From: Escherichia coli
GTDB lineage: Bacteria; Pseudomonadota; Gammaproteobacteria; Enterobacterales; Enterobacteriaceae
DNA length: 64,000 bases
Assembly: GCF_003018235.1 (NCBI RefSeq)
Contig: NZ_CP027437.1
Strand: one strand, 5' to 3'
A model generated the notes under the pieces. That model was given only the letters and a program-made list of their open reading frames with translations, was not told the DNA's origin and searched no databases. Below are positions 21,950 through 46,669 of the stretch, piece by piece. Every line of letters begins with the position of its first letter. Position 1 is the stretch's first letter. The position numbers and the translations under genes are program-made.

Positions 21950-24232
<2,283 letters not shown>

Positions 24233-25913: not shown

Positions 25914-27046
25914 GACTGAAGATTCTCCGCAAGCCATGATGCCAGTTCGCCCGGTGTCATGGCGGCTATTTGTGCGCCGACATTAACCAGCGCCTGGGCC
26001 GTATCGCGGTCATAGCAAGGCGTTGCTGTGCTATCGAGCGCTGCCAGTCCCAGCACTTTGATGCCGCTCTGGACACACTTTTTCACCTGATGCGTCAGCA
26101 ATGATGATGAACCTCCTTCATAAAAATCGCTCACGAGGATAATGACGCTTTTTGCTGGTTGTTCAATAAGTTGCCGACCATACTCCACGGCACTGGCGAT
26201 ATTGGTCCCGCCGCCCAACTGTACTTTCATTAATAACTCTACCGGATCGGCAACGTCTGCCGTGAGATCAACGACGCTTGTGTCAAACGCCACCAGATGG
26301 GTACGAATGCCGGGTAACTGCCACAAACAGGCCGCCATCACCGCAGAGTGGATCACCGAATCGACCATCGAGTCGCTTTGATCAACCAGTAAGACCAGTT
26401 GCCATTGTTCGCTTTGGCGTTTAATGCGGCTGTTAAAGCGGGGGGATTCGATATACAACTTGCCGTGTTGCGGGTGCCAGTGTTGCAGGTTGGCGCGCAG
26501 AGTACTTTTGAAATCAAAGTTTCGCGCCAGTGGAATAAATGAGCGGCGACGGCGATCGCGGACACCAGAAAAAGCCTGACGAACTTCCTTTGCCAGTCGA
26601 GCCATAATTTCTTCAACAACCTGGCGCACTATCCGGCGGGCGGCAGCCAGTACTTCGGGATTCATCAGATGTTTGGTGTGCAAAACGGCGCGTAGCAGGC
26701 TTTCAGAAGGCTGCATACGTTCCAGCACGTCGAGATTCGTCACCACATCTTCAATGCCATAGCGCAGTACGGCATCGCTTTCCAGCCGCTCAATCACCTG
26801 TTGCGGAAACAGCGTGTGAATACTGTTGATCCACTCAGGAGTGGTGAGATTTGAGCCACCTAATCCACCAGAGCGTTCACCACGCTGGAGCCGTTCAGGA
26901 TCGCGCCCATACAGCCACTCCAGCGCGTGGTCTATCTGCCGGGCGTTGTCATCCAGCCCACAAAGCGTCGTTTCTGCCGCTTCGCCAAGAATTAATCGCC
27001 AGCGTTGTAGCTCACGGGTGGTCAGAAGATCGTTCAGTTCAGACAT
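25910..27046 (-). CDS. yehP: von Willebrand factor A (VWA) domain protein
   Basis: ORF 25910..27274; start at MSELNDLLTTRELQRW, 378 aa; MIDAS-like motif LLVDQSDSM (DxSxS). Confidence 0.88.
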   Translation of the reverse strand: MSELNDLLTTRELQRWRLILGEAAETTLCGLDDNARQIDHALEWLYGRDPERLQRGERSGGLGGSNLTTPEWINSIHTLFPQQVIERLESDAVLRYGIEDVVTNLDVLERMQPSESLLRAVLHTKHLMNPEVLAAARRIVRQVVEEIMARLAKEVRQAFSGVRDRRRRSFIPLARNFDFKSTLRANLQHWHPQHGKLYIESPRFNSRIKRQSEQWQLVLLVDQSDSMVDSVIHSAVMAACLWQLPGIRTHLVAFDTSVVDLTADVADPVELLMKVQLGGGTNIASAVEYGRQLIEQPAKSVIILVSDFYEGGSSSLLTHQVKKCVQSGIKVLGLAALDSTATPCYDRDTAQALVNVGAQIAAMTPGELASWLAENLQS

Positions 27047-29318: not shown

Positions 29319-29328
29319 GCATCTTTCC

Positions 29329-30417
29329 TCACGGCAGGCGGTGGCGGGCTTGATAATAAGCCTGCCAGTGAGCTTCTTTATGTGTGGCGACTCGCTGTTC
29401 GAAGTAACGGCGCAGACGAGCGCGATCTTCTTCGTTATCTTTGACGATGGTTCCGGCAATACAGTCCACCAGATCGGCTGGCTCACCTGCGCGATTCGCT
29501 AAAAACCAGGCGCGGACGCCCACAGCGTGGGCCACGTTCACGGCTTCAGCGGTGGACATAATCGCTGTTAGTGTATCCATTGACGTTTTCTTTTCGCCGT
29601 TGGCACGCAGATCGCGGAAGGTGCGGACCAGTAACTCCAGTACCGCGTCAGGCACTTTATGCGGAATACCGCTATGGGCCAGCAAACGCGCCGAAGCACT
29701 GGCGACAAGCTCCAGCTCCTGGGCGAAATCCATAATCGGAAAGACAGTTTCAAAATCGAAGCGACGCTTTAGCGCGGCACTCATCTCATTGACGCCACGA
29801 TCGCGCGTATTGGCAGTGGCAATAATATTAAAGCCTTCTCGCGCATAGAGCTGACTGGCTTCACCAGTGAGTTCCGGCACCGTCATCACCCTGTCAGAAA
29901 GCATACCTAACAGACAGTCTTGCACTTCCAGCGGTGTACGCGTTATCTCTTCAAAACGGACGATTTTGCCGTCGCGCATTCCCTGGTAAAGCGGGGCAGG
30001 GACCAGCGCTTCCGTTGATGGACCATGATTGATAAGCAGGGCGTAGTTCCAGCCGTACTTGATTTGATCTTCGGTAGTAGATGCGCCGCCCTGGATGGTT
30101 AACCCGGCATCGCCGCTAATAGCGGTTGCCAGTAATTCAGACAGGAGAGATTTTGCGGTGCCAGGTTCCCCCACCAACATCAAACCGCGTCCGGTGGCAA
30201 GAGTGACTAACATACGTTCGACAGCGGAGGGACTAATCACCACTTTACGGCTAATATTTTGCGCGCTATCGCCAAGGATAAAAGCACGGGCCGCAGGCAA
30301 ACTTAACTGCCAACCGGGCGGGCAAGGTGCGTTATCATTTTGTTTTAATTTTGCCAGTTCATCGGCGTATAACACAGCAGCAGGCGGACGCTGCAGATGA
30401 TTATTCTGCGGTGACAT
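29329..30417 (-). CDS. yehL: MoxR-type AAA+ ATPase
   Basis: ORF 29329..30483; start at MSPQNNHLQRPP, 362 aa; Walker A GEPGTAKS, Walker B-like region. Confidence 0.88.
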   Translation of the reverse strand: MSPQNNHLQRPPAAVLYADELAKLKQNDNAPCPPGWQLSLPAARAFILGDSAQNISRKVVISPSAVERMLVTLATGRGLMLVGEPGTAKSLLSELLATAISGDAGLTIQGGASTTEDQIKYGWNYALLINHGPSTEALVPAPLYQGMRDGKIVRFEEITRTPLEVQDCLLGMLSDRVMTVPELTGEASQLYAREGFNIIATANTRDRGVNEMSAALKRRFDFETVFPIMDFAQELELVASASARLLAHSGIPHKVPDAVLELLVRTFRDLRANGEKKTSMDTLTAIMSTAEAVNVAHAVGVRAWFLANRAGEPADLVDCIAGTIVKDNEEDRARLRRYFEQRVATHKEAHWQAYYQARHRLP

Positions 30418-30528
30418 ATATTCATCCCTGAAATGTATTAATGAAATAAACGATATTTTACGCGCAATAAATGTTTGGCGCATTAGTTGTTTGAGCGAAA
30501 AATATCTGGAAAGCAGATCACAGTAAAT

Positions 30529-30625
30529 AAAAAAACCTGCTGGTGAGGCAGGTTCTTTTATTTACTATTTTCAGGCCTAACACCACAGCCTGTGCAACAT
30601 CGTGTTCCAACGAACGAATTATAAC
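30529..30625 (-). ncRNA. orzO: Candidate Orz-like antitoxin sRNA (copy 1), ending in hairpin acctgcctcaccagcaggt + U7
   Basis: Minus-strand intrinsic terminator at 30529-30552; body contains about 20 nt (complement of gcaacatcgtgttccaacgaacg) able to pair with the leader of the adjacent toxin mRNA (30757-30782). 5' end not determined. Confidence 0.5.
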
Positions 30626-30849
30626 CACGGCTGGACCCCGTTGCAATTAAGATAATGAGATTTATAATCCAGACCGTTGGGACGTTGCGCCGGATCGAAC
30701 CTATTTCAAGTCCTGGCTACCGGACGGGTGGTGCTGCAGGTGGTGCCCTGATCCGGGGTGCAACATCGTGGTCCAACATACGTAAACCAGTATCGACAGG
30801 CAGTGTAAGGGTAAGGTGCTGGTGTTGCGCTCCTTAATAAGAAGAGCGG

Positions 30850-30939
30850 ATGGACACGCTGACACAAAAGTTAACCGTGCTCATTGCTGTACTGGAGCTA
30901 TTAGTGGCTCTGTTACGGTTGATTGATTTGTTGAAGTAA
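30850..30939 (+). CDS. zorO: Type I toxin, Zor family: 29-aa hydrophobic peptide MDTLTQKLTVLIAVLELLVALLRLIDLLK
   Basis: Hand-translated; SD-like AAGAG upstream; followed by terminator hairpin; sequence matches my memory of ZorO from E. coli O157:H7. Assignment of O versus P to a given copy is arbitrary. Confidence 0.75.
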   Translation: MDTLTQKLTVLIAVLELLVALLRLIDLLK

Positions 30940-30960
30940 CGGGCAAATTGAAACGCATCT

Positions 30961-30989
30961 AAGGGGGAAAACCGCTTCCCCCTTTAATA
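30961..30989 (+). terminator. Intrinsic terminator after the toxin gene (aagggggaaaaccgcttccccctt + T-rich)
   Basis: Seen in sequence. Confidence 0.55.
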
Positions 30990-31134
30990 AAATGATTACT
31001 GTTTTTATTAATTCATCATATAACTCATTTTTATTTATAAATTCATCGATTTTATATTCAACGCACCATTTGACCGGGATGTGAATATTTATGGTGGGCT
31101 ATTGGCAAAAAATATCTGGAAAGTAGATCGCAGA

Positions 31135-31230
31135 AAATAAAAAAACCTGCTGGTGAGGCAGGTTCTTTTATTTACTACAGTGACGCTAACTTGCTGATTG
31201 TGCAACATTTCGTACCAACGAATAAATTAT
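31135..31230 (-). ncRNA. orzP: Candidate Orz-like antitoxin sRNA (copy 2), same terminator as copy 1
   Basis: Terminator at 31135-31164; pairing segment (complement of gcaacatttcgtaccaacgaata) matches the leader of toxin copy 2 (31367-31391) but differs from copy 1. Confidence 0.5.
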
Positions 31231-31457
31231 AACCATATCCACACTCCATTGCAATTCAGTGAGTGAGATTTATAATCCTGCCCGTTGGGAGGTTGTGCCG
31301 GATCGGACCAATTTTAAGTCCTGGCTGCCGGACGGGTGGTGCCGCAGGCGGTGCCCTGATCCGGAGAGCAACGTTTCGTACCAACATACGTAAACCAGTA
31401 TCGACAGGCAGTGTAAGGGTAAGGTGCTGGTGTTGCGCTCCTTAATAAGGAGAGCGG

Positions 31458-31547
31458 ATGGACACGCTGACACAAAAGTTAACCGTGCTCATTGCCGTAC
31501 TGGAGTTATTAGTGGCTCTGTTACGGTTGATTGATTTGTTGAAGTAA
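31458..31547 (+). CDS. zorP: Type I toxin, Zor family (second copy; identical 29-aa peptide with synonymous changes)
   Basis: Hand-translated; differs from copy 1 only at synonymous positions (GCT/GCC, CTA/TTA). Confidence 0.75.
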   Translation: MDTLTQKLTVLIAVLELLVALLRLIDLLK

Positions 31548-31568
31548 CGGGCAAATTGAAACGCATCT

Positions 31569-31597
31569 AAGGGGGAAAAACGCTTCCCCCTTTAATA
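31569..31597 (+). terminator. Intrinsic terminator after toxin copy 2 (aagggggaaaaacgcttccccctt)
   Basis: Seen in sequence. Confidence 0.55.
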
Positions 31598-31656
31598 AAG
31601 CTATACTCGTCATACTTCAAGTTGCATGTGCTGCGACTTGAATTATCTAGAGTATA

Positions 31657-31974: not shown

Positions 31975-32034
31975 CGCTTTCCCCGCTGGTAAGTCGTGTT
32001 GATAACGGGCAGTTGCATCACTGCCCGCTGTGTT

Positions 32035-35000
32035 TTAATGGAAAATGACGTCAGGTGCGCTTAACGCCTCACTCAAATCAAACACATCAAGTTCGGCAAA
32101 AGTGACGGATTTATTGTCACGGTACACTCGAAGAGAACGGAAGCTCATTAGCGCTTTGCTATCAACATTGTAGTGGTTAAAACCGGGTGAAAACTTAAGG
32201 ACCAGCCGGTACTCACCCAGGTCATAGACAAATGCGTCCTCATAGCCTGACTCCCAGCCTTTGTATCGCATTCCCATAAGTTGCCCAACGGTAGCGGATT
32301 TACCTTCCCAGCGAGTCAGGCTGTTACTGGTTGACTCGTCAGGTGTGAGCAGCACCGTGCGGCGCGACAACTGGCGAAAAGGCGGCATAATTTCGTAATC
32401 GGCAAAAAGCTGTGCAAATTCACTGCGCATTTCTGCTGTCATTTCTAACGGGTGGGCAATGCCAATCAGAGCATCCGCAGGAAGGTCAATGGGCTCATCC
32501 TGCGCATTGCAGAACTCCCCCTCTGCGGCCACACGAAAGGCGTTGAGTAAACGACGCGGTTCATTTGCCGGATAAACCCCCCATATTAATCGCTGGGTAA
32601 CCAGGCGGGTAAAGGGATGATTAACAAACAGAGAATGAAAATCTGCCAGCGACCAGCGTCGGGTGGTACGTAGGGCAGCTTCAAGACGCGGGAGCAGGTT
32701 TTTGCTCACCTGAGTAGCATCTTTTTTTAGCCCTTTTAGTCGGGCCAGTGCCTCGGGCGCTTTTAGTTGATCGTCATCGGCACGCAACCGGGGAACGCTT
32801 TTCTGGCGAACGTTTTGTTGATCAAAGGTAACCGGGTTGAGGTTTTCATCGAAGCGAACGGTAAACTGCCGGGGACCAAAATCAAAAATCAACGCCTGCG
32901 GATCATCAAGACCCAGTGTTGGGACTAATCTGTCCGCTAACTCTTCCTGGCTTAGCCCGCGATTTTCTGCGACCACCTGAAGAAATTCCGCTGCGTTTTC
33001 ACGTAATGAAGAGGATTTCGCCCGTTGTGATACATGATGCAGCTGTATCAGCGCCATATCATTATTCATCAAGGTAAGTATATTCAGACCAATGACAGCA
33101 CGGGCAGATTTGCCTTCTTGTGGCCAGGCGAGGATCTGTGTCGTCAGATCCCGAGCCGTGCTTTCGTCACCAAAGAGACTTAACGCCAGAAATGCCCAGT
33201 TGTCTTTTGCGGGGGCACCAGCTTGTTGCCACGCAGTGAAGAGATCCCAGGCAAAAGCGGCCAGCGTTTGTGGCTGGCAAAACGTTTTCAGTTGTTCCAG
33301 ACCGCTATAAAAACGTCCGCCCTGGGTAAAGCGCAGCATTTCGCCGATAATTTCCAGAGCGTCATCGGTAACAGGCTGATTATTAGTGATAAGTCGCGGC
33401 CTGGACCACATTGCCGGATGCCAGAAATCAGGGGCTTTTGGAATGCGTGCCGGGTAAATGTCCATTGGACCCTGTTTAAGCAACTGCTCCAGGGCAGGCC
33501 ATACATCAGCGCGTTGCCAGCGGTTTGCCACGGTTTGCAGCAACTCGCCATGTCCCTGTTCGTACAGTAAACGCAGGGCAAGTAATGCGGCTTCGCTATT
33601 ATCGCTGGGTTTGGTAAAGACAAGAGGGATAAGTGCAGTAGCCGTATGTTCCGGCCATTGTAAAATCCACTGGCGAGCCAGATCACGCTGCACCGCGAAA
33701 CGTCGCCAGACGCGGGCAACGGGCAGGGCCAGTTCTGTTGCGCCAAAATTTAAAATTAACGGAAATGTTTCTTTTGGACGATGTAAAAAAGCCAACATCA
33801 GACCTGGTAGCGCATCCAACCCGAGGATACTGAGAAAATAGTCCTCACCCGCGAACAGATGTTTTTTCTCATTGATACGCAGCCAGAAGGTCAAAGCCAT
33901 CTCACGCGGCAACTGTGCCAATAAATACAGGTTCCAGACACTCTTTTCCGGACGATAACGTGAGTAGTTGTCATTTTCCCATATGTTAATTAACGCTTCT
34001 TCGTGACCGCTGCGAAGCGCCTGTTCTGCTAATTGTGCTTCCGGGGAGTTCCAGCCATTCAGGATCTCTTCAACCCGTCCCTGGTAGTAATGCCACTGAA
34101 CAATGAGTGAATTGCGTGCAGCATCCAGTTTTCCGGGGAGTATATAATTCAGAAACAGCCATACATCATCCCCAAAACCCAGTTCCTGTAATACAACTCG
34201 TCCACTTTTTTGTTCCATGCGTTCCGCAAGAGATTCCGTGCTGAAATAACGGGCAGACTCAGTGGCGGCAAGCCTCTCTTGTTCGCCTGGTTGCCAGTAA
34301 ACTTGCGGGGTTAATTCGAGCGGTGCCAAATCAAGACGTGGAGCTGTCATTTTTTTCTTACTACGCCACGGTGGTGAAACGAGGATTTCAGGCAGATTGC
34401 TGTTATCGGTGCCATCAATAACCGGTTTGGGCGGTGCCAATAAATAACTATTCAGTACTGCCCGGGCTTGAGTACTTAACCACTGCATCACCTCTTCTGC
34501 CAGTTGTGTCTGCGATGCCATCAGCGTTTGTAACAACGTACGCCAGTATTCATCTCGAGCTTTTTGCTGGGCAGGCAGCTTTTTGTCTTCGATGATTGGA
34601 TAACCAGGGCGGGCTGGTGGTTCTTTTAACGCCAGCAGTTCTGCCAGTGCCGCGAGCGTCGCGTGGGGGAAGTTTTTACTGTATTTAGCCACACGTTGCA
34701 GGCTGGGTTTGTTTTTATCAGCAACTAACAGCAAGGTGCGGATGACTTGCGGATGGTTAATTTGTACCAGCAGACTGCCGCAATCTTCTTTATGGGCATA
34801 TATCGCGAGGCGCGGAACGACTGCCAGTCCTTGTTCGCGCAAAAGGGCAGCGCAGGCCGCGTAGCCGAAGTGGTTTTCATGCGACATGTAGCTGGCTTCT
34901 CGATCGCTAAATATATCCTGGCTCCAGTAGCGTTCGAGTTTTCTCACCGCTTTGGGGTCAGTAGCAACAACTTTTAACCACTCCTTAGAATGAAAATGAG

Positions 35001-35667
35001 TCCGCGGGCATTCAAGGCTTACCAACTCATTGGCGATTTCTGGTTTTTCGGGGAGGATCAGCGCAATAAAAGGGCGGCGAACTTTGGTTATTCCTGGCAG
35101 TGCGGCAATGAGTTTGTCGGCGCAACGCTGCCAGCAGCTTTCCTCTGCCAGAGAGAGGTGTTTACGCAGTCGGAGATCGAATTCGTTATAGGTTTCTGAG
35201 CGATAACCATAGCCATAGTCCTCGTTCTGATACTGCAATGTGACTACCAGAGGATCACTCTCATAACACCGTGCAATAAACTGGCGTGCAATCACCACCT
35301 CAGTCGCATATTCCAGCCCCTCTTGTTGGACGATTTCGTCGAGCAACTGTTGGCTGTCATTTTGCGCGATACAGGCTAGCGCCGCCATTGTGCGGGCCGG
35401 GACTGAGGGTTTGTGTTCGCCGATCAAGTTGATGGCCTGCGTAATGGCGGACTGCCACTCCAGTGAAAAATTTTCATAACGCCAGACAATGTTTTTTTTC
35501 TTCTCAGCTTTTTGTAGCAATTCATCACCCAGTGTCTGAATGATGCTTTCAGTGATAACAGGCACCGGTTCGCCCGGCCATTTGCGATGACTGAGTGGTG
35601 TTTTGCCTTTTTTATATTTCAGTTCCAGTTGGGCGTTATCCGCCAGCCACGGTAATTCCTTGTCCAT
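32035..35667 (-). CDS. yehI: Giant uncharacterised protein (1210 aa), molR/yehI family (DUF4132-like C-terminal region), lacks the N-terminal WGR domain
   Basis: ORF track 32035..35667; paralogous to the two upstream genes over most of its length. Confidence 0.88.
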   Translation of the reverse strand: MDKELPWLADNAQLELKYKKGKTPLSHRKWPGEPVPVITESIIQTLGDELLQKAEKKKNIVWRYENFSLEWQSAITQAINLIGEHKPSVPARTMAALACIAQNDSQQLLDEIVQQEGLEYATEVVIARQFIARCYESDPLVVTLQYQNEDYGYGYRSETYNEFDLRLRKHLSLAEESCWQRCADKLIAALPGITKVRRPFIALILPEKPEIANELVSLECPRTHFHSKEWLKVVATDPKAVRKLERYWSQDIFSDREASYMSHENHFGYAACAALLREQGLAVVPRLAIYAHKEDCGSLLVQINHPQVIRTLLLVADKNKPSLQRVAKYSKNFPHATLAALAELLALKEPPARPGYPIIEDKKLPAQQKARDEYWRTLLQTLMASQTQLAEEVMQWLSTQARAVLNSYLLAPPKPVIDGTDNSNLPEILVSPPWRSKKKMTAPRLDLAPLELTPQVYWQPGEQERLAATESARYFSTESLAERMEQKSGRVVLQELGFGDDVWLFLNYILPGKLDAARNSLIVQWHYYQGRVEEILNGWNSPEAQLAEQALRSGHEEALINIWENDNYSRYRPEKSVWNLYLLAQLPREMALTFWLRINEKKHLFAGEDYFLSILGLDALPGLMLAFLHRPKETFPLILNFGATELALPVARVWRRFAVQRDLARQWILQWPEHTATALIPLVFTKPSDNSEAALLALRLLYEQGHGELLQTVANRWQRADVWPALEQLLKQGPMDIYPARIPKAPDFWHPAMWSRPRLITNNQPVTDDALEIIGEMLRFTQGGRFYSGLEQLKTFCQPQTLAAFAWDLFTAWQQAGAPAKDNWAFLALSLFGDESTARDLTTQILAWPQEGKSARAVIGLNILTLMNNDMALIQLHHVSQRAKSSSLRENAAEFLQVVAENRGLSQEELADRLVPTLGLDDPQALIFDFGPRQFTVRFDENLNPVTFDQQNVRQKSVPRLRADDDQLKAPEALARLKGLKKDATQVSKNLLPRLEAALRTTRRWSLADFHSLFVNHPFTRLVTQRLIWGVYPANEPRRLLNAFRVAAEGEFCNAQDEPIDLPADALIGIAHPLEMTAEMRSEFAQLFADYEIMPPFRQLSRRTVLLTPDESTSNSLTRWEGKSATVGQLMGMRYKGWESGYEDAFVYDLGEYRLVLKFSPGFNHYNVDSKALMSFRSLRVYRDNKSVTFAELDVFDLSEALSAPDVIFH

Positions 35668-35676
35668 GCTCTTTCC

Positions 35677-38600
35677 TTATTCAAACAGGGCTTCAATATC
35701 GTTAATTAGCTCGCTGGCGGTGATGGCATCGAGTACGGAGAACTGCGCTTCCTGTGTTGAATTACTCCCCCAGCCATAGCTTTCCGCTTTGCCTTCCCAT
35801 AGCCACAGCTTGCTTAAGAGCTGCTCAGCGCTAAGTTCGGCTGGTGACATACCCACCGCAAAACCTTCGTCGATTTCCATGATTAACGACCAGCGACCGA
35901 GAGGTTTGATCATCCAGCCGATCCAGCCTCCATCCTGCGGGGTGCCCTTTATCCAGCCTTTATTCGCCAGCCCCATTACCCGACCGCTCGGGCATTTTCT
36001 GCCTGCCCAGCGGGTCAGTTCGCTGGCATTGCGCTCGGTTTCTGTCAGGGCGTAACTGTTACGGTCGAGCTGGCGGAACGGCGGTAGCAGTTCGTAGTCG
36101 GCAAAAAGCTGCCCAAATGCGGCGGCATCCGTCGGTGATATTTCCAGAACGTGAGGAATACCAACAGAGATATCGCCTTCCGGCAGGGTGAAAAGATCAT
36201 CGTCAGCGGTGCTGTAGCTGTTATCTTCCGCTACCCGGAAACAGGCCAGTAGCTGGTTGTCGGCGCTATAAACGCCCCAAATCAGACGGCGGGTTAAGTG
36301 GCGAACCAGCGGATGCACAACCAGGAAGAGTTGGAAGTTTTCCGGCGACCAGCGGCGGCGCAGGCACATGGCGGATTCAAGCCTTGCCACCTGCTGGGCG
36401 GCGACGGTACGCGCATCTTTTTTCAGCAGTTTGTAGCGGTTAACAGCATCGTTCGCCTGTGATTCATCATCGCTTTTGTTTGGTTTGGGCAGGTCTTTCA
36501 GACGGCTGCCGGAAGCGTCACGCACAAACGGTTTTAAGGTTTCATCAAAGCTGACGGTGAACTGGCGTGGGCCGAAATCCAGCAGCAACGAACCGTTATC
36601 ATCCAGACCGAGATCTGGTGCTAACTGATCTTCAAGCTCCGCCACCGTGAGTTCGCGACTTTCAGCAATGTCGGCAATTTTTTCTTTCGCCCGCTCCTGT
36701 AAAGCTTTGAATTTCAGTTTCTGAGCAATGCCGTTAAGCTGCATCAGAGCGATATCACTACCGATAGCGGCGAGGATATCAAGCCCGACGGTGGCGCGTT
36801 TATGCTGGGATTCACCAGGCCAGGCGCGTATTAATGGCGTCAGTTTGCGGGCGGTGTCATCGTTACCAAGAACGCCTAACGCAGCGAACGCCCAACTCTC
36901 TTTCGACGGCGCGCCCGCAGTCAGCCAGGCGGTAAACAGATCCCAGGCAAATTCAGCCAGTGAGTCGGCGGTACAGGCATCTTTCACCTGCAATAATCCC
37001 GGATACAGTGCCTCTTCCTGAGGGAAGCGGAGCATTTCACCGAGGTGCTGGAGTGCGCTATCGGGCAGTGATTGGGCGTTTGCTTTTAATACCGGGCGCG
37101 TCCAGAGCGATGGCTGATAAAAGGCCGGAAGAGTGGGGATTTTTGTCGGGTGATTATCTAAGGGATCGAGCGCAAGCAGAGCGTTCATCGCGTCTGTTAC
37201 TTCCGGCTGGTTATAACGCCGGGCGATTTCTTGCAGTAATGGCTGATGACCGTTTTCGCTAAGCATACGCAAGGCAGCGCGGGCGTTATCCTGTGCTTCA
37301 CCGGCTTTGCCGAGCGCGGCAGGCAGCAGGCCGGTAATGGCGTGTTCCGGGTATTTCAGCAGCCAGCTACGGGCGTCTTGTCGTAGGGTTTTGAGTTTGT
37401 TGAAGGCGCGGGCAATGAATGGAGCCAATTCGACAGCCGCGAAATATTGTGCCACGGGAAGAGCTTCCTGCGGATAGCGAGATGCTGAGTGGATAAAACC
37501 TGTTAAACCAGCAAGTCGAAGATGCAACATTACTTGTTTTGCACCTGTATGTGGTTCTTTACTAAGGATATTCCACATCTCAATAGCTTTATTTATGGGT
37601 AAAACATGGAGTGAAGAAAGCTTCCATTCGCCCTGATAAGGGGCGTTATAGGACTTAAAAGCATCGATCAAAGTTAAATAATCTTCACGCTGCCAAGCAT
37701 CCAACGCTATTTCTGGAATATCAATATAGCCTCTATGTTTGTTCCAATCCCAGCGGTCGAATCCCAGGGAATTCAGAAAACCTTTTTCTCCCTCTGCTTG
37801 CTGACGAGGTTGCCAATTATGCTGCACTTGAAGTCTTTTGCTTTTTGTTTCATTTATTGTACAGAAAGATTCCAGGGGTAATGGTGCTAAATCCAGCACT
37901 GGAATCGGCGATTTTTTCTTTTTAGCCTGCCACGGCGGTGAGACTAATACGGCAGGCAGCATATCGGCGTTCGCATAAACTGAAGGTTGTGTTAGTTGTT
38001 GCTGGCATGACTTAAGAACGGTAACTGTCGGGGCAGATAGCCAGGAGATCACCCCTTCTACTAATGTTGGTTGTGAGATAAGCATCGTCATTAGCATCAT
38101 GCGCCAGCGCTTTTCATCTTTTTGTGCCAGAAGTTCTGCTAATGCCGCCAGCGCTGCATGTGGAAAGCGAACGAAAGCCTTTGTCATGCGATCGTGGCAA
38201 CGCTTTCCCTGCTCACTTGCATGGATAAGTAGTGTAAGTGCTTGCGGGTGGTTGATATGCATCAACACTTCCCCACATGTGTCACCAGCAGCGTAAGGGG
38301 CAAAACGGGCCAACGCAGCGACACCTTGCTCCTTGAGTACTGTCGCACACCAGATTTTACCGCCGTAATAATCATCAAATACCTGCCCTGGCTGTCCTGG
38401 ATAGTATTACCCCAGTTCTGCCAATACCTGCTCGTCGGTGGTCGTCAGTTTTAGCCATTCCAGCGCATATACCCCTTTTTGTCCGCAAAGATGTCTGGCA
38501 ATCTCATGAGCTACTTCTGGTTTTTCCGGCAACAATAGTGCGACCAGCGGCTGGTTCCAGGCGGGCATGTTTCCGAGAGCGGCAATCAGTTTGTCGGCGC

Positions 38601-39435
38601 AGCGCTGCCATACATCGTCATTTGCAAGTGAGAGATGCTTACGCAGGCGCATTTCAACCGAAGCGAAGCGTGACAGATAGTCAGGCTGCTTGTTATCCGG
38701 GGTAAAAGTAATGAGGTGGGCATCATAATTCCAGTCAAATCGGATGAATTGCAATGCGATGACAACCTCAGTGGCATATTCCAGACCACCTTCCTGGACA
38801 ATTTGATCCATTAACTCTTCGTGATCGTTACGATTGAAGCCTTGCTCCAGCGCAACCAGTACCGCCAGAACCATCGGTAGTAGTGTGGTGCTAATCGGCG
38901 AGTCGATAAGGCCCACTGCTTGTGTAATCGCCTGCTGCCAGTCCAGTGAACAGGTGCTGTAATTGAAGGTGATCACCTTTTTAAAACGCCGGTGAGTATT
39001 CGCGGCGACGGAGCGTAGCAGGGTTAATTCATTCTCCTTTGGCACAGGATCGCCAGGCCAGCGTCGATGACTTAGTGTGGTTGGCGCAACCTCTGTCGGT
39101 AAAATGATTTGGGCGTCGTCTGCCAGCCAGGGGAGGTGGTCTCCAGTCAATGCTGGTTTGTCTTGTGGCAAAGGGGCTATTTCAGGGCATTCGATAACCT
39201 GGGTGGGTACAGATGTCGGTGTCATCACGGATACTTCTTCTACGTAGCCCTTTTTTGTTTTCTCCGCAATCAGCTTCAGTTCCGCTTTTTCCGCCGCCGC
39301 AGTATCTGCAAAGCTTTTTACCTGACTTTGCCCGTTAGTGCCAACTTTACCCCAGGTTATATGCAGTTCGTTTCTCTGCTGTTCCACCGCCCAGAATTTA
39401 TGTGATTTTTCGTCCTGATAAATATAGGTTTTCAT
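35677..39435 (-). pseudogene. molR/yehI-family paralog with N-terminal WGR domain, interrupted by a single in-frame TAA (complement of 38407-38409)
   Basis: ORFs 38407..39435 (342 aa) and 35677..38313 (878 aa) are in the same frame with no other stop between them; about 1252 codons if read through. Confidence 0.7.
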
Positions 39436-39447
39436 TGCTAAATCCTT

Positions 39448-42400
39448 TTAATCAAACAGTGATTCAATGTCGTTAATCAGCTCGCTGGCGGTGATGTCGT
39501 CGAGCACGGAGAAAGTGGGTGAGGATTGTTTACCATAGCGATCATAAGGGGCGGTGATTTTTACGCTTTCGACAGGCAGCAGGTCGCTATACCCCGTTTC
39601 GCCATAAATTAATGAAAAAGGTTCTGTTTCAAGTTCGAGAGCACCATAAGGGGTAAATTTGCGCATCGCATAGACGCTGCCGCTTTCTTCCAGACGTTGC
39701 CAGCCTCTGCGTTCCAGCCCGACAATGCGTCCGGCCTGGCAGAGACGTCCGTTCCAGCGTGACAATTCATGGACATTACGTTCGTTATCAGCAAGGTGGT
39801 AACTACCACGTTCGAGCTGTTGGAAAGGGGGAAGCAGTTCGTAATCAACGTAAATTTGCCTGAATGCAGCGGCGGATTCAGGGGGGATTTCCAGCACATG
39901 CGGTATACCGATGTTTCCTGCTGGCAGCGTGAATAACTCATCCTGCGCATCGCTGTAAGTGCTGTCTTCTGCCACGCGAAAACAGGTGATAAGAGCGTTT
40001 TCATCGTTATAAACCCCCCATAACAGCCGTCGGGTTAAGTGACGTACCAGCGGATGCTCCACCAGAAACAGGCGGAACTGCTCTGCCGTCCAGCGTCTGC
40101 GCTGGCACATAGCCTGTTCCAGACGATCAATCTGCTGGCTGGCTATGGCGCGTACATCTTTTTTCAACTGTTTGAAGAGATTAACCGCGTCAGTTGCCTG
40201 AGTTTTTTCATCGCTCTGGTTTGGTTTGGGCAAATCTTTCAGGACTTTGCCGTTTGCGTCGCGCACTACAGGTTTTAAAGTTTCGTTAAAACCAACGGTA
40301 AATTGACGTGGGCCGAAATCCAGTGTCAGCGAGCCACTGCTATCAAGCCCTAAATCCGGTGCCAGGCGGTCTTCCAGTTCAGCCATAGTCAGCCCACGGT
40401 TTTCAGCGACCATGTTGATTTTGTCGCTGGCATGTTCCTGCAATGCGGCGAATTTAATTTTTTGCGCAATGCCATTAAGCAGCATCAGCGCAATATCACT
40501 ACCGATACTGGCTAACACATCCAGCCCGTAAACCGCGCGTTTATGCTGGGATTCACCCGGCCAGGCGCGGATGAGCGGGGTTAGTTTACGCGCGGTGTCG
40601 TCATTGCCTAGAATCCCCAGCGAGGTAAATGCCCAGTTTTCTTTTGCGGGTGCGCCAGCTTCTGTCCATGCCGTGTAGAGATCCCAGCCAAAGTCAGCCA
40701 GTGATTCGCGGGTGAAGGTCTCTTTGATGATCGCCAGCCCAGCGTAGGAGGTAATGTCGCGTGGAAAGCTCAACATTGTGCCGAGGTGGCGCATAGCGTC
40801 ATCTGGCAGAGGCAGGTTGTTACTTTTAAGCCGAGGTCTGTGCCATAAGGTGAACTGATAAAAGCCGGGCAGTGGGGCGATTTTTGCAGGATATTCTTCC
40901 AGTGGGTCGCTATCAAATAATGTTGCCAGCGCAGCTAAAACATCAGGTTGATTATATCCTTGGGCGATTTCCTCAATCGTTTCTCGCTGGTTTAATTTCA
41001 CTAGCAGGAGGAGTGCCTGGCGGGAATATTCCCGATTTTGGCACGGTTTGCCCAGCGCCAAAGGTAGTAGCCCGGCGGCGGCATGGCGCGGGTTATTTGC
41101 CAGCCAATTAACGGCATCCTTGTAACCCATTTTTTTCTGTAACCGCTGCGCCATTGGTAAGGCTAGGTCACTGGCCCCAATAAAGAGGGTGAATATCCAC
41201 AGTCGTTGATGATCTCGTTGCAAGCAGGTCATAAACGCAGGAATGGCCGTACTGCCAAAAATCCCCAGAATCTCTTTCTCACCTGAATATCGCTCCTCAA
41301 TGATTATTTGGTTGAGAAATGAAATCGCCTGTTGTCCCGGTAAGTAACAAAGCGCAGATAGATTCCAGCTTTTGTTGGCATTGTTGTGATATTTCGCAAA
41401 CTCAACTTTTAGTGCTGGAAAATCAAAGCGCAACAAGGCATCAACAGCGCTTTGCGGTATATATTTTTTTTCATGTAAGTCATCTTCGCAATGCAGCCAT
41501 TCATTAAAACCTAATTGCCAAAGGATTTGTTGTTCTGGTGTAAAAGGAATGAAAGATGTCTCCCAGCTTTCTTTTTCAATTAGTGGCAGTTCGGTAAATA
41601 AGGTTTGCTGTGATGCCTGATATTGCGCGATTTCATAGAATCTGGATATGTCAGTATGACTGATTAACTCTGTAATTCCTGGTGTGATATCCGTGACGGC
41701 AGGGATGGGAAGTACCGGCAAATCAAATACGGGTATTACATTCTTTTTCTTATTTATTACCCACGGTGGAGCGACAAACAGCTCTGGCAACATATCCGCA
41801 GTGGCATATTCACATTCTTCAGCGACTGACTGCGGACGACATTCAGATAAGATGCCAGCGGCTTTGGCATTAACCCAGGGAATGACGTCGCATACTAACT
41901 CTGGCGTGATGGTAATCAGTTTGATAAGTGCGTTGCGCCACTGTGCATCTTCATGTATTGCCAGCAAAGTTGCATAAGCGGCAATAGCCGCAGCGGGATG
42001 TTTTTGGCAGGCTTTGCTTAAGTATTCCAGGTGCTTTTTCTTGCCATTTACACCGAGGATCAGAATCTGAATCGCATCCGGGTGATTCGTTTTCCATAGC
42101 CATTTGACAAGATTTTCAGTCTCGCTGTTGCGCTCGAAAAGATAAGTGGGATTGTCAGAATGCTCTTCCGTAAACTCAAGAAGGATCTGGCTTACACCCC
42201 GAATTCCATTATTCGCCAGCAACATTGCCAGATAAGCGCGAAAATTACGAAAATCACGATACAACGGTGGGAAGTCGTATTTTTCCACTGTAGTCAGAGC
42301 AGTATCATCGGTTATCACCAGTCTTAACCAGGTCATCGCCGGAACGTTTTGATCTGCATAATGTAGCGCCATAGCATTGGCGATATCCGGGCGTTCAGGG

Positions 42401-43254
42401 ATCAGTAACGCCGCAAAAGGTTGCCGTGCTGGGGATAGCGAGGGAATAGCCGCGAGTACCTTATCTACACAGCGTTGCCACTCATCTTCTGAAGCGAGTG
42501 AAAGATGATGACATAGACGTTGATGCCAGTTCGGTAGCGATTCTGCTTTGAGATCAGGGGGAATGATGGTGGTGACGTCGGCTTTTACTGGTTTATATCT
42601 AAGTTGAAGAGCGAGAAGGGCAATTTCAACGGCACTTTCCAGACCACAGCGAATGACTAAGTCATCGACCAGTTCATCTGCAGAGTAAGAGTTCCAGAAA
42701 CTCCAGAGCAATGCTGCATCAGATTGCACACTCCCTGTCTGTTGATTACCCTGAACTCGCATTTGTAACTCAGCAAAAGCCTGCTGCCAGTTTTCTGGAT
42801 AAGAACGGTAATTGTTGGCGGGATCATATGCTCTGGTGTTATTCGCGATGAGCTGCCATATTTGACCATCTTTGTGCAGATAATTGATCTCTCTGGGGCG
42901 AGAGCGATGAGGAAAAGCAAATCGATTAATATCGTCAGTTAGCCGAATGACCGCATCATCAGCCAGCCAGGGGCGTTGGTTTTTACTCTCAGGGGAAGTT
43001 TCAACTTCAGGAGTGGCTTTGGTAATGGGGGGGATATGCACGTTTGCTGAAGCATTTTCCACATAGCCTTTTTTCGTTTTCTCCGCGATAAGATTCAGTT
43101 TCGCTTTTTCCGCTGCTGCAACATCAGCAAAATTTTTTACCTGGCTTTGCCCTTGGGTACCAACTTTTCCCCAGCTGATATGCAACTCGTTTCCCTGCTG
43201 CTCCACCGCCCAGAATTTATGTGATTTTTCGTCCTGATAGATATAACTCTTCAT
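39448..43254 (-). CDS. molR: Giant WGR-domain protein (1268 aa), molR family; appears intact
   Basis: ORF track; N-terminus MKSYIYQDEKSHKFWAVEQQGNELHISWGKVGTQGQ (WGR-like). The K-12 counterpart is remembered as a pseudogene. Confidence 0.8.
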   Translation of the reverse strand: MKSYIYQDEKSHKFWAVEQQGNELHISWGKVGTQGQSQVKNFADVAAAEKAKLNLIAEKTKKGYVENASANVHIPPITKATPEVETSPESKNQRPWLADDAVIRLTDDINRFAFPHRSRPREINYLHKDGQIWQLIANNTRAYDPANNYRSYPENWQQAFAELQMRVQGNQQTGSVQSDAALLWSFWNSYSADELVDDLVIRCGLESAVEIALLALQLRYKPVKADVTTIIPPDLKAESLPNWHQRLCHHLSLASEDEWQRCVDKVLAAIPSLSPARQPFAALLIPERPDIANAMALHYADQNVPAMTWLRLVITDDTALTTVEKYDFPPLYRDFRNFRAYLAMLLANNGIRGVSQILLEFTEEHSDNPTYLFERNSETENLVKWLWKTNHPDAIQILILGVNGKKKHLEYLSKACQKHPAAAIAAYATLLAIHEDAQWRNALIKLITITPELVCDVIPWVNAKAAGILSECRPQSVAEECEYATADMLPELFVAPPWVINKKKNVIPVFDLPVLPIPAVTDITPGITELISHTDISRFYEIAQYQASQQTLFTELPLIEKESWETSFIPFTPEQQILWQLGFNEWLHCEDDLHEKKYIPQSAVDALLRFDFPALKVEFAKYHNNANKSWNLSALCYLPGQQAISFLNQIIIEERYSGEKEILGIFGSTAIPAFMTCLQRDHQRLWIFTLFIGASDLALPMAQRLQKKMGYKDAVNWLANNPRHAAAGLLPLALGKPCQNREYSRQALLLLVKLNQRETIEEIAQGYNQPDVLAALATLFDSDPLEEYPAKIAPLPGFYQFTLWHRPRLKSNNLPLPDDAMRHLGTMLSFPRDITSYAGLAIIKETFTRESLADFGWDLYTAWTEAGAPAKENWAFTSLGILGNDDTARKLTPLIRAWPGESQHKRAVYGLDVLASIGSDIALMLLNGIAQKIKFAALQEHASDKINMVAENRGLTMAELEDRLAPDLGLDSSGSLTLDFGPRQFTVGFNETLKPVVRDANGKVLKDLPKPNQSDEKTQATDAVNLFKQLKKDVRAIASQQIDRLEQAMCQRRRWTAEQFRLFLVEHPLVRHLTRRLLWGVYNDENALITCFRVAEDSTYSDAQDELFTLPAGNIGIPHVLEIPPESAAAFRQIYVDYELLPPFQQLERGSYHLADNERNVHELSRWNGRLCQAGRIVGLERRGWQRLEESGSVYAMRKFTPYGALELETEPFSLIYGETGYSDLLPVESVKITAPYDRYGKQSSPTFSVLDDITASELINDIESLFD

Positions 43255-43394
43255 CCGCGTTCCCTGTATTTATATCCAGTTATAAGCGGATGCTAGCAGT
43301 TAATGAAAAAAATTAAGAGCGTTGAACAAACAAGAAAACAACTTTAGGAATTTATAAAGAAAAGGCGCTGTCGATGCAGCGCCTTGAAGGGGGA

Positions 43395-45428
43395 TTATTT
43401 CACCTGATGACCCGGTTTAGCACCGGCATCCGGGCTTAGCAGGAAAATATCTTTCCCGCCAGGACCGGCAGCCATCACCATGCCTTCAGAGATACCGAAG
43501 CGCATTTTACGTGGTGCCAGGTTAGCCACCATAATGGTGTGACGGCCAATCAGTGCCTGCGGATCCGGGTAAGCAGAACGAATGCCGGAGAAGACATTGC
43601 GTTTTTCACCGCCGAGATCCAGCGTCAGGCGTAGCAGTTTGTCAGAACCTTCAACAAACTCTGCGTTTTCAATCAGCGCCACGCGCAGGTCAACTTTGGC
43701 GAAGTCGTCAAAGGTGATGGTTTCCTGAATCGGATCATCTGCCAGTGGGCCAGTAACTGGCGCGGCAGCTGCTTTCACTTCTTCTTTAGACGCTTCCACC
43801 AGTGCTTCAACCTGCTTCATATCGATGCGGTTATACAGCGCTTTGAACGGATTCACTTTGTGGCCCAGCAGCGGTTGCTGGATACCATCCCAGGTCAGTT
43901 CCGTATTTAGGAATGCTTCTGCGCGCTCGGTCAGTTTCGGCAGTACCGGCTTCAGGTAAGTCATCAGCACGCGGAACAGGTTTATGCCCATCGAGCAAAT
44001 TGCCTGCAGGTCAGCATCGCGGCCTTCCTGTTTCGCCACCACCCACGGAGCCTGTTCATCGACATAGCGGTTAGCCAGATCAGCCAGCGCCATGATTTCG
44101 CGCACTGCTTTACCAAATTCGCGGCTTTCCCACGCTTCACCAATCACTTCAGCGGCATCAGTGAAGGTTTTGTACAACTGCGGGTCAGCCAGTTCGCTTG
44201 CCAGCACGCCGTCAAAACGCTTGTTGATAAAGCCCGCATTACGAGAGGCCAGGTTAACCACTTTGTTAACGATATCGGCATTCACGCGCTGAACGAAATC
44301 TTCCAGGTTGAGATCGATATCATCAATGCGCGAAGAGAGTTTCGCAGTGTAGTAGTAACGCAGGCTGTCGGCGTCAAAATGATTCAGCCAGGTGCTGGCT
44401 TTAATAAAGGTACCGCGAGACTTAGACATCTTCGCGCCGTTCACCGTCACATAGCCATGAACAAACAGGTTGGTCGGCTTACGGAAGTTGCTGCCTTCCA
44501 GCATTGCTGGCCAGAACAGACTGTGGAAGTAAACAATATCTTTACCGATGAAGTGGTACAGCTCGGCGGTGGAGTCTTTCTTCCAGTATTCATCGAAGCT
44601 TACGCTGTCGCCGCGCTTGTCGCACAGATTCTTGAAAGAACCCATATAGCCAATCGGCGCATCTAGCCAGACGTAGAAATATTTACCCGGCGCGTTCGGA
44701 ATTTCAAAACCGAAGTACGGCGCGTCGCGGGAGATATCCCACTGTTGCAGGCCGGATTCAAACCACTCCTGCATTTTATTTGCCACCTGCTCCTGCAACG
44801 CACCGCTGCGGGTCCATGCCTGCAACATTTCGCTGAAAGAGGGCAGATCAAAGAAGAAGTGTTCAGAATCACGCATTACCGGCGTAGCGCCAGAAACCAC
44901 CGATTTCGGCTCGATCAATTCAGTCGGGCTGTAGGTCGCGCCGCAGACTTCGCAGTTATCGCCGTATTGATCCGGGGATTTACATTTCGGGCAGGTGCCT
45001 TTCACAAAACGGTCCGGCAGGAACATGCCTTTTTCCGGATCGTACAGCTGAGAGATGGTGCGGTTTTTAATAAAACCGTTTTCTTTCAAGCGAGTATAGA
45101 TAAGCTCAGACAACTGGCGGTTCTCTTCGCTGTGCGTCGAGTGATAGTTGTCATAGCTGATGTTAAAGCCTGCGAAATCAGTCTGATGCTCCTGACTCAT
45201 TTCGCCAATCATCTGCTCCGGGGTGATACCAAGCTGCTGAGCTTTCAGCATGATCGGTGTACCGTGGGCATCGTCGGCGCAGATGAAGTTGACCTCGTGG
45301 CCGCGCATTCGCTGGTAACGGACCCAGACATCAGCCTGGATGTGCTCCAGCATATGGCCGAGGTGGATTGAGCCGTTAGCGTACGGCAGTGCGCACGTCA
45401 CCAGAATTTTCTTCGCGACTTGAGTCAT
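43395..45428 (-). CDS. metG: Methionyl-tRNA synthetase
   Basis: ORF 43395..45437; start at [25 protein letters not shown] (HIGH motif), KMSKS present, 677 aa. Confidence 0.97.
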
Positions 45429-45559
45429 AGTAGGCATTACTTCTTAATAGTGAAAAGGGGTTAGATAGTACCAAATGGGAAAATGTTAAGTAAGTACTTC
45501 TCTATATTCTTCAGGTAAACTATCAGCTGATGGTTTATCTATACAAAAAAGGAGTCGGG

Positions 45560-46669
45560 ATGAACGAACAATCCCAGGCCAAATCACCAGAAGCCTTGCG
45601 CGCAATGGTCGCCGGGACACTGGCCAATTTTCAGCACCCAACCCTGAAGCATAACCTCACCACGCTGAAAGCGTTGCACCATGTCGCCTGGATGGACGAC
45701 ACGTTGCATGTGGAACTGGTTATGCCATTCGTCTGGCATAGCGCGTTTGAAGAGTTAAAAGAGCAATGTAGCGCCGAACTGCTGCGTATCACCGGGGCGA
45801 AAGCTATCGACTGGAAACTGTCGCACAATATCGCCACCTTAAAACGCGTGAAGAATCAGCCGGGTATTAATGGCGTGAAGAACATCATTGCGGTCAGTTC
45901 CGGTAAAGGCGGCGTGGGTAAATCCTCCACGGCGGTAAACCTGGCGCTGGCACTGGCGGCGGAAGGGGCGAAAGTCGGCATTCTGGACGCCGATATCTAC
46001 GGCCCATCAATTCCCACCATGCTGGGCGCAGAAAATCAGCGTCCAACTTCGCCGGACGGTACCCATATGGCACCGATTATGTCTCATGGCCTGGCAACCA
46101 ATTCAATTGGTTATCTGGTCACTGACGACAATGCGATGGTGTGGCGTGGACCGATGGCGAGCAAGGCGTTAATGCAGATGTTGCAGGAAACCTTGTGGCC
46201 GGATCTCGACTATCTGGTGCTTGATATGCCGCCAGGCACCGGTGACATTCAATTGACGCTGGCGCAAAACATTCCAGTAACTGGTGCAGTCGTGGTCACC
46301 ACCCCGCAGGACATCGCGTTGATCGATGCGAAAAAAGGCATTGTGATGTTCGAGAAAGTCGAGGTTCCGGTGCTCGGTATTGTCGAGAACATGAGTGTGC
46401 ATATTTGCAGTAACTGTGGTCACCATGAACCGATTTTCGGTACCGGTGGTGCAGAGAAACTGGCTGAAAAATACCACACACAGCTGCTGGGGCAGATGCC
46501 GTTACACATCTCCTTACGTGAGGATCTCGATAAAGGCACGCCAACGGTTATTAGCCGTCCGGAGAGCGAATTTACCGCTATCTACCGCCAGCTGGCTGAC
46601 CGCGTTGCAGCTCAGCTCTACTGGCAGGGTGAAGTCATTCCAGGCGAGATTTCCTTCCGCGCGGTCTAA
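45560..46669 (+). CDS. mrp: Fe-S cluster carrier ATPase (Mrp/ApbC/NBP35 family)
   Basis: ORF 45530..46669; start at MNEQSQAKSPEALRAM; P-loop SGKGGVGKS; CxxC motif. Confidence 0.95.
   Translation: MNEQSQAKSPEALRAMVAGTLANFQHPTLKHNLTTLKALHHVAWMDDTLHVELVMPFVWHSAFEELKEQCSAELLRITGAKAIDWKLSHNIATLKRVKNQPGINGVKNIIAVSSGKGGVGKSSTAVNLALALAAEGAKVGILDADIYGPSIPTMLGAENQRPTSPDGTHMAPIMSHGLATNSIGYLVTDDNAMVWRGPMASKALMQMLQETLWPDLDYLVLDMPPGTGDIQLTLAQNIPVTGAVVVTTPQDIALIDAKKGIVMFEKVEVPVLGIVENMSVHICSNCGHHEPIFGTGGAEKLAEKYHTQLLGQMPLHISLREDLDKGTPTVISRPESEFTAIYRQLADRVAAQLYWQGEVIPGEISFRAV

Follow-up and report, generated by a model that had tools for sequence, protein, structure and literature searches.

We wondered why the Escherichia coli gene called molR appears as one, two or three genes, and what its long paralogs might do. 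The question is addressed here on a window of 64,000 nt, taken from contig NZ_CP027437.1 of the E. coli assembly GCF_003018235.1, in which a molR-like gene (gene A), a middle paralog (gene B) and yehI follow one another on the minus strand. The molR–yehI locus of this window is the ancestral three-gene form. Taken together, the data are best explained by an ancestral array that was reshaped by recombination and whose products would act as adaptors of the machine encoded by the neighbouring yehL, yehM, yehP and yehQ genes (YehLMPQ); we hold this explanation as a whole to be probable. molR, yehI and yehLMPQ are long-standing E. coli unknowns, studied mostly in K-12.

Three tandem paralogs of common architecture

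On the minus strand of the window the gene order is metG (43395-45437), A, B, yehI, yehK, yehL, yehM, yehP, yehQ. Open reading frame (ORF) analysis places A, B and yehI head to tail in one shared frame, with the junctions TAA-AAGGATTTAGCA-ATG (A to B) and TAA-GGAAAGAGC-ATG (B to yehI). The initial annotation, made from the sequence alone, had described such tandem paralogs separated by a stop and 3-4 codons that hold a sequence resembling a Shine-Dalgarno (SD) site, and both observations hold. Spacers of 12 and 9 nt are read, and blastp aligns the three proteins over nearly their full length, with identities of 44% for A/B (1303 columns), 38% for B/yehI (1177 columns) and 31% for A/yehI (1243 columns) and with E-values from 0 to 4e-170, far beyond chance. 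The 12-nt spacing of A and B also occurs in other E. coli and in Klebsiella spallanzanii. Short SD-bearing spacers fit operon-type coupling. All array genes are already annotated in RefSeq.

Similar WGR-like starts of A and B, and a yehI lacking this domain, had likewise been proposed, and searches with hidden Markov models agree. Pfam WGR (PF05406) matches residues 8-69 of A (E = 3.3e-17); in B, an NCBIfam WGR-region match covers residues 1-72 (E = 4.9e-17), where B is 85-91% identical to A. yehI of the window contains Pfam DUF4132 (E = 3.1e-47) and, like K-12 yehI, no WGR. Its start is the LPWLAD motif, which aligns to residue 95 of A and residue 101 of B, i.e. after WGR and linker. DUF4132 was also detected by Pfam in A; in B it is assigned by alignment to A and not by direct scan (44% identity over full length, 60% in the C-terminal part, hereafter C-part). 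Apart from the WGR-region match, which is to a Leptospira family, and weak AAA matches, the NCBIfam scan returned nothing further.

A structure model of A residues 1-820 (pLDDT, a per-residue model confidence score, of 82) displays a WGR sheet-plus-helix unit at 1-61, a disordered linker at 70-90 and helices beyond, with a loop-rich stretch at about 480-600 that overlaps variable module 2 (see below). In the model of the last 468 residues (pLDDT 89.7), HEAT-like repeats precede an alpha/beta domain holding the Pfam DUF4132 region. Each paralog is about 1200-1270 amino acids (aa) long and consists of a predicted succession of WGR (if present), linker, alpha-solenoid, HEAT-like repeats and DUF4132 alpha/beta domain. 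Among 40 homologs, the C-part has 49 invariant positions. No solved structure convincingly matched the alpha/beta part of the C-domain, and the sequence search of PDB returned WGR proteins only.

The modelled WGR fold superimposes on the WGR domain of PARP3 at 1.4 A over 70 residues, and also on that of DNA-bound PARP1. According to two reports, the WGR domain of PARPs (PARP1/2/3) recognises DNA breaks (PMC6294510, PMC13061835). Unlike PARPs, A and B have WGK in place of the WGR motif, yehI is devoid of the domain, and Pfam scans of A and yehI detected no PARP catalytic domain, the remainder being solenoid and DUF4132.

The paralogs are ancient

A, B and yehI are ancient paralogs without recent duplication. 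Synonymous divergence (pS) between A and B is 0.5-0.9 along the genes, which amounts to synonymous saturation. Amino acid identity of the pair is 85-91% in the WGR region (residues 1-66), 20-48% in residues 67-790, 50-85% in residues 793-1190, 18-39% in a variable tract at about 1190-1287, and 82% in the last 17 residues. At DNA level, blastn still detects similarity between the two genes in three stretches only, with 84% identity over the first 198 nt, 71% over 1 kb of the C-part and 88% over the last 66 nt. Klebsiella spallanzanii possesses orthologs of A (55%), B (65%) and yehI, or gene C (56%), in the same order and followed by yehL and yehM homologs. Since this species has A, B and C orthologs in the same order, the three-gene state is ancestral.

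Gene conversion was considered as a cause of the conserved ends and rejected: pS of the WGR block is still 0.52-0.58, and that of the last 17 codons is moderately lower (0.36). Constraint at protein level accounts for most of their conservation. In gene A of strain SCU-105 (locus L084, 4347-4550, first ~150 nt) a B-like tract lies at about nt 66-146 of the WGR block, and it suggests that gene conversion may occasionally take place between the 5' homology blocks of A and B.

The single reading frame, to which the initial annotation drew attention, is present as observed, but nothing supports it as a meaningful feature. It looks like chance, since the Klebsiella spallanzanii genes are in frames 0,0,2 and tandem DUF4132 pairs of other taxa share a frame in 13 cases of 40, which is the chance rate. 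A single giant ORF or programmed read-through is likewise unsupported, the frame not being conserved in relatives and the stops being TAA.

Copy number is reduced by recombination between conserved ends

Of 5,426 complete E. coli genomes surveyed for the array, 5,421 contain at least part of the locus, always in the same position. The body of A is present in 1,643 genomes, K-12 not being among them, and the 3' part of B in 5,327. Subtraction gives about 1,550 genomes (29%) with three genes, about 3,780 (70%) of the K-12 type and no more than about 94 that carry A plus yehI. The initial annotation had described K-12 as containing only a fragmented molR and yehI, and this is indeed so: K-12 has two genes, the frameshifted pseudogene molR (b2115-b2117) and yehI (b2118). 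Its further suggestion that copy number varies through recombination between repeats is borne out by the counts above and by two in-frame breakpoints, both resolved in the conserved ends.

One breakpoint is located in the 5' block. In K-12-type genes (K-12, H106, GN05476) the diagnostic bases are those of A between the start codon (ATGAGACACTTTATC...) and about nt 167; further on they are those of B. The three-gene strain EBJ003 has a B that aligns collinearly with the K-12-type gene along its full 3,795 nt (92.6%), yet has a B-type start. Judging by these diagnostic bases, K-12 'molR' is an in-frame A::B chimera that arose by recombination within the WGR-coding block and was later broken by a frameshift and stops. 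The other breakpoint is located in the 3' block. Comparison of EC190759 (two genes) with GN04096 (three intact genes) revealed flanks of 99.8% identity and an exact deletion of 3,774 bp (1,258 codons), with the crossover inside CATCACCGCCAGCGA, a sequence that A and B share in their final 66 nt.

Copy number is thus shown to be altered by homologous recombination between the repeat ends, namely the ~200 nt at the start, which code for WGR, and the final ~66 nt. By crossover in the 5' block, A codons 1 to ~55 were fused to the remainder of B, which gave the single 'molR' found in K-12 and in about 70% of E. coli; in a small minority of genomes, B was removed by crossover in the 3' block. Because synonymous sites are saturated and A, B and C have orthologs in Klebsiella, copies were lost from an old three-gene array and not gained.

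The window and K-12 have in common the site between metG and yehK/yehL and a LexA box (see below). Their yehI genes are 96.3% identical, and B of the window matches the 3' half of K-12 molR at 92% identity. On the contrary, K-12 has one gene where the window has two, the body of A (~3.6 kb) is without K-12 counterpart, and the N-terminal half of window B belongs to another allele class (DNA identity of 75% or undetectable). Since the K-12 locus is a fused and broken remnant, experiments in K-12 cannot reveal its function, and strains with three intact genes, such as GN04096, PK-F-10122 and SCU-105, are preferable. The same history accounts for annotations that show 'molR' as one, two or three genes.

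Table 1. Features of the array and its surroundings in the window (positions counted from the first letter of the window).
Feature	Position	Strand	Remarks
Gene A (molR-like)	39448-43254	-	1268 aa, intact; WGR, linker, alpha-solenoid, DUF4132 (from ORF, Pfam and structure models)
Gene B (middle paralog)	35677-39435	-	1252 codons, one nonsense codon inside
yehI	32035-35667	-	1210 aa, intact; no WGR; alpha-solenoid and DUF4132
WGR domain of A	43048-43233	-	residues 8-69
DUF4132 domain of A	39700-40251	-	residues 1002-1185; Pfam PF13569, E = 5.4e-50
5' homology block of A	43057-43254	-	first 198 nt, 84% identical to that of B; recombination site of K-12-type chimera
3' homology block of A	39448-39513	-	last 66 nt, 88% identical to end of B; site of EC190759-type deletion
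A-B spacer AAGGATTTAGCA	39436-39447	-	12 nt, SD-like AAGGA
5' homology block of B (WGR-coding)	39238-39435	-	WGR-region match, residues 1-72
3' homology block of B	35677-35742	-	last 66 nt; 98-100% identical across all B and K-12-type alleles
B-yehI spacer GGAAAGAGC	35668-35676	-	9 nt, SD-like
In-frame TAA at codon 343 of B	38407-38409	-	AAA in close relatives
yehL-yehM-yehP-yehQ	24213-30483	-	MoxR-type AAA+ (AAA_5), DUF5682, CoxE-like VWA, SWIM
LexA (SOS) box AACTGGATATAAATACAGGG (CTG-N10-CAG)	43262-43281	-	putative, 20-mer; ends 7 nt before ATG of A
Terminator-like hairpin after metG	43362-43385	-	9-bp stem with 6 G-C pairs, then T-run; parts metG from the array

Deep allele classes in the solenoid of B

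The C-terminal 550 residues of B (701-1252) are 94-98% identical among E. coli strains and about 80% identical to Klebsiella. Two preceding modules, residues ~100-450 and ~500-700, fall into deeply diverged classes, with identities of 32-71% in 100-residue windows and 40-62% over whole modules and with pS of 0.6-0.9. GN04096 and PK-F-10122 differ in module 1 and are 95-99% identical in module 2; between the window and GN04096 the reverse is true. In these alignments, modules 1 and 2 reassort independently. Variable segments also occur elsewhere in the array, in residues 501-700 of A (53-79%) and, in milder form, in residues 401-600 of yehI.

Classes of B module 1 were counted at a coverage of at least 80%. 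The K-12 class was found in 4,025 genomes, the class of the window in 689 and the PK class in 154; the remainder of 5,327, about 460 genomes by subtraction, includes the shorter PC6/O157 type, in which B has 1,010 aa. In module 1, E. coli classes are 40-59% identical to each other and 39-59% to Klebsiella B, and the PK class is nearer to Klebsiella (59%) than to any other E. coli class. B thus displays trans-species-level polymorphism or repeated import, confined to the solenoid.

The ratio of non-synonymous to synonymous divergence (dN/dS) is 0.2-0.3 overall and about 0.1 in the C-part, compared with 0.02 for metG. Purifying selection on the C-part is seen from its non-synonymous divergence (pN) of 0.01-0.03 as against pS of 0.1-0.3.

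Multi-allelic loci reshuffled via conserved flanks are known from hsdS specificity genes and from orphan modules of Rhs and contact-dependent inhibition (CDI) systems. Those loci and the present array have in common conserved ends around deeply diverged modules, and recombination at the ends alters gene number and produces in-frame chimeras. In contrast to them, the array has neither an invertase nor a site-specific recombinase, lacks toxin and immunity domains and gives no sign of programmed switching; its events are ordinary homologous recombination, fixed in lineages. In the literature searched, we met no description of the chimeric origin of K-12 molR, of the ancestral three-gene state, of module-level allele classes or of recurrent arrays upstream of a yehLMPQ-type cluster.

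A private stop codon in B and damaged copies in other strains

The initial annotation gave about 1252 codons for the middle paralog. This length is correct, but an in-frame TAA at codon 343 interrupts the gene and had been overlooked. The closest B alleles (TB06051, XH990 and GN04096) have AAA (Lys) at this codon and are open throughout, and the intact B genes of TB06051 and XH990 share 98% identity with B of the window. Since the three closest alleles carry AAA and are open, the TAA is private to the window sequence. Either B of the window is a fresh pseudogene or split gene, knocked out by what would be a private nonsense mutation, or the stop is a base-call error.

B of TB06051 (L002, 6814-10572) and B of XH990 (L087, 4301-8059) each form one uninterrupted 1252-codon ORF. 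RefSeq/PGAP, the RefSeq annotation pipeline, splits them into two partial pseudogenes, 'WGR domain-containing protein, missing C-terminus' and 'DUF4132, missing N-terminus'. For this allele class of B the two-pseudogene annotation is probably an artefact, and our analysis flags such intact alleles that RefSeq lists as pseudogene fragments.

Damaged copies were encountered in other strains. In O157:H7 ATCC 43889 (L008), a stop lies inside A, B is truncated or has lost a part, and yehI carries a frameshift; other O157 genomes have the same 87.8% A allele. In H106, yehI is frameshifted. IS1 insertions are present in the K-12-type gene of genomes H109 and H110, and split locus matches in H13 and H39. 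The blaCTX-M-15 transposon TnMB1860 has been described as inserted in the metG/DUF4132/yeh region of a sublineage of sequence type 131 (ST131) (PMC9334617).

DUF4132 genes recur beside a conserved partner cluster

In the window, Pfam assigns the partner proteins to AAA_5 (3e-34), DUF5682 (2e-99), VWA_CoxE (4e-71) and, marginally, SWIM (1.1e-3). The C-part has homologs of about 50% identity in Burkholderiales, Xanthomonadales, Myxococcota, Actinobacteria and Acidobacteria, among other groups, and in Burkholderia, Cystobacter and Massilia the DUF4132 genes adjoin AAA_5, DUF5682, VWA_CoxE and SWIM genes. Gene context was surveyed by iterated profile searches in 71 loci from several phyla. A YehL homolog was present in 50 loci and all four partner genes in 39, arranged in the order seen in the window. 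The DUF4132 gene is usually situated directly upstream of the yehL homolog, with a median gap of 49 nt, and this conserved gene order is the sole pointer to an interaction of the DUF4132 protein with the ATPase/VWA pair. Tandem DUF4132 genes (at least two) were found in 18 of the 71 loci, arrays ranging from one to about twelve such genes before one MoxR AAA+/DUF5682/VWA/SWIM cluster.

Massilia mucilaginosa CCM 8733 (WHJH01000004, ~171.8-216.6 kb) contains about twelve tandem WGR/DUF4132 paralogs over ~45 kb, which precede a single AAA_5-DUF5682-VWA-SWIM-like cluster. In several Massilia species, solitary DUF4132 genes without the partner cluster are found elsewhere.

YehL is the name-giver of one of seven MoxR subfamilies, and MoxR-VWA pairs are described as chaperone-like maturation factors (PMC3893208). 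With its AAA_5 protein (yehL) and VWA_CoxE protein (yehP), the cluster resembles the pairs RavA-ViaA, CoxD-CoxE, NorQ-NorD and CbbQ-CbbO. It differs from them in having DUF5682, SWIM and one or more WGR-solenoid-DUF4132 proteins in addition, and multiplication and hypervariability of a partner gene, as in the YehL-type cluster, have not been described for the characterised pairs.

Possible regulation of the array by LexA

A putative LexA box precedes gene A (Table 1), and the box recurs, with 2-3 substitutions, before the first gene in all eight other E. coli loci examined, K-12 included. The strict pattern CTGT-N8-ACAG has no match at the locus; the box of the window has CTGG and was found by reading the sequence. 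molR has been listed among LexA-controlled genes with a known SOS box, the data concerning K-12 molR (PMC6590174). Depletion of the damage-response repressor DdrO in Deinococcus derepresses a DUF4132 gene and a WGR gene (PMC8533742).

Possible function and alternative explanations

In our proposal, the DUF4132 end would dock each paralog on the shared YehLMPQ ATPase machine, the variable solenoid would provide a recognition surface and WGR would bind a nucleic-acid end. Because docking, recognition and end-binding are inferred in this way, the array is taken as a set of alternative recognition or adaptor subunits, which in E. coli would be expressed after DNA damage and might serve a genome-surveillance or conflict-type function. 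The outcome might be related to repair, to defence against mobile elements or to maturation of a client complex. Gene context and variation make it most likely that the paralogs are such variable recognition or adaptor subunits of the YehLMPQ machine. A conserved five-component cluster occurs in several phyla, with one component multiplied and held in very old allele classes. As it is mostly recognition molecules that display such a pattern, this gives a testable lead for MoxR proteins of the YehL subfamily, bacterial WGR proteins and DUF4132. Only tentatively can one go further and regard the WGR-solenoid-DUF4132 genes as the diversifying recognition arm of a widespread, uncharacterised genome-surveillance or immunity machine (MoxR AAA+/DUF5682/VWA/SWIM) that DNA damage switches on in E. 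coli, with conserved ends as recombination handles for swapping, losing and multiplying modules (1 to ~12 copies) and allele classes kept by balancing selection across genera.

Several observations weigh against the recombined array of adaptors. Docking, sensing and surveillance roles are deduced from gene order, domain content and variation patterns, and the figure of ~1,550 three-gene genomes comes from subtraction, not from direct typing. No window of 100 codons has pN > pS, and dN/dS is never above 1, so that ongoing positive selection is not demonstrated. Pseudogenes are common, with examples in K-12 (molR), O157:H7 (all three genes), H106 (yehI) and the window (B). Between the array and yehL, E. 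coli has yehK and a toxin-antitoxin insert of 1.2 kb, so that co-expression with yehLMPQ is not assured, and the genes of Erwinia, Serratia and Edaphovirga have no LexA box upstream. The locus is in a fixed place in 5,421 of 5,426 genomes, unlike typical mobile defence islands; no homolog was found in 50,697 phage records, and just 30 of 72,556 plasmid records contain one. Search of PADLOC-DB v2 with nine proteins (A, both parts of B, yehI, yehK and yehL/M/P/Q) detected no family at E <= 0.01.

Two alternatives concern the history of the locus. Recent tandem duplication or amplification in the source strain, with a copy gained by unequal crossing-over from a K-12-like two-gene state, would account for the head-to-tail order, the short uniform spacers, the shared frame and the ends of 84-88% DNA identity, all of which resemble a duplicated unit. 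It is practically negligible: the A/B pS of 0.5-0.9, protein identity of just 44% and the collinear Klebsiella spallanzanii orthologs of A, B and C are not what a recent event leaves behind, and the A-type 5' end of the K-12 gene requires an A gene in the ancestor of K-12. That the array is a decaying relic in E. coli, varying and suffering deletions from relaxed constraint, we consider distinctly unlikely. Disrupted copies are common (K-12 molR, three in O157:H7 ATCC 43889, yehI of H106, B of the window), dN/dS is about ten times that of metG (0.2-0.3 vs 0.02), and an ST131 sublineage tolerates a transposon in the region (PMC9334617), but dN/dS well under 1 with clear purifying selection on the C-terminal part, intact three-gene arrays in several lineages and conservation of the cluster in Proteobacteria, Myxococcota, Actinobacteria and Acidobacteria point the other way, and the deep allele classes predate any relaxation inside E. 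coli.

Two further alternatives concern function. The paralogs could serve a housekeeping MoxR-VWA chaperone, as its substrates or as adaptors, in the maturation of a metallo-enzyme or another complex. This would agree with the old name 'molybdate metabolism regulator', with the precedents CoxD/CoxE, NorQ/NorD and RavA/ViaA, with the AAA_5/MoxR nature of YehL and the VWA_CoxE match of YehP (E = 4e-71), with the maturation role described for MoxR-VWA pairs (PMC3893208) and with a locus that is chromosomal, fixed in position and absent from phages. We nevertheless regard this as quite unlikely. Among the 71 loci, searched for L, M, P, Q and DUF4132 families only, these families recur without a metallo-enzyme or molybdenum neighbour; trans-species allele classes, arrays of up to ~12 genes and frequent loss are left unexplained; WGR is the sole DNA-binding regulator domain; and molR is a pseudogene in K-12, where it was named. 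Domain content and partner-gene context give no support to the old name. A dedicated defence against phages or mobile elements, with the paralogs as diversified sensors and YehLMPQ as effector or activator, is suggested by hypervariable sensor-like modules beside a conserved core, paralog expansion, SOS control, the adjoining type I toxin-antitoxin pair and a weak bpMoxR match in YehL (E = 0.0023), a family of MoxR-vWA ternary conflict systems. It is unlikely all the same: none of the nine proteins matched PADLOC, Pfam scans revealed no recognisable effector domain (nuclease, NADase, protease, pore), and the genes are absent from phages, rare on plasmids and confined to one fixed site in nearly all E. 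coli. The vWA-MoxR ternary conflict systems that Kaur, Burroughs, Iyer and Aravind reportedly described in 2020 combine a MoxR ATPase, a vWA protein and a large variable third component. The YehL cluster shares this composition, the bpMoxR match being weak and below significance; it differs in that the third component is WGR/DUF4132, not VMAP or beta-propeller, and in that no effector domain was found. To our knowledge, DUF5682 and SWIM partners are not part of those systems.

The locus is also found in several E. coli records filed as plasmids (H125-H133 and H82), among them 'plasmids' of 181 kb to 4.9 Mb; by appearance these are pieces of chromosome or misfiled chromosomes, not true plasmid copies.

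Elements flanking the array

An 8-bp G+C-rich hairpin, CGGGCAGTTGCATCACTGCCCG, is situated at 32006-32027, within the 60 nt that separate the stop of yehI from the start of yehK. It may be a terminator or attenuator that sets the array apart from the genes downstream. Between yehK and yehL, a tandem repeat of ~608 nt occurs in two copies (30495-31613). Each copy contains an identical 29-aa ORF, MDTLTQKLTVLIAVLELLVALLRLIDLLK, on the plus strand (30850-30939 and 31458-31547) and an OrzO-P antitoxin small RNA on the minus strand (30529-30604 and 31139-31212; Rfam RF02083, 99.9 and 88.8 bits). A ZorO/OrzO-type type I toxin-antitoxin pair is known between yehI and yehL in O157:H7 and is absent from MG1655 (PMC2887945); the repeat copies of the window represent this pair. 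On the other side of the array, G+C content drops to 0.36-0.39 at 46500-48000, just past apbC, and in related genomes the neighbours of this low-G+C stretch are annotated as yehE and the yehD fimbrial protein.

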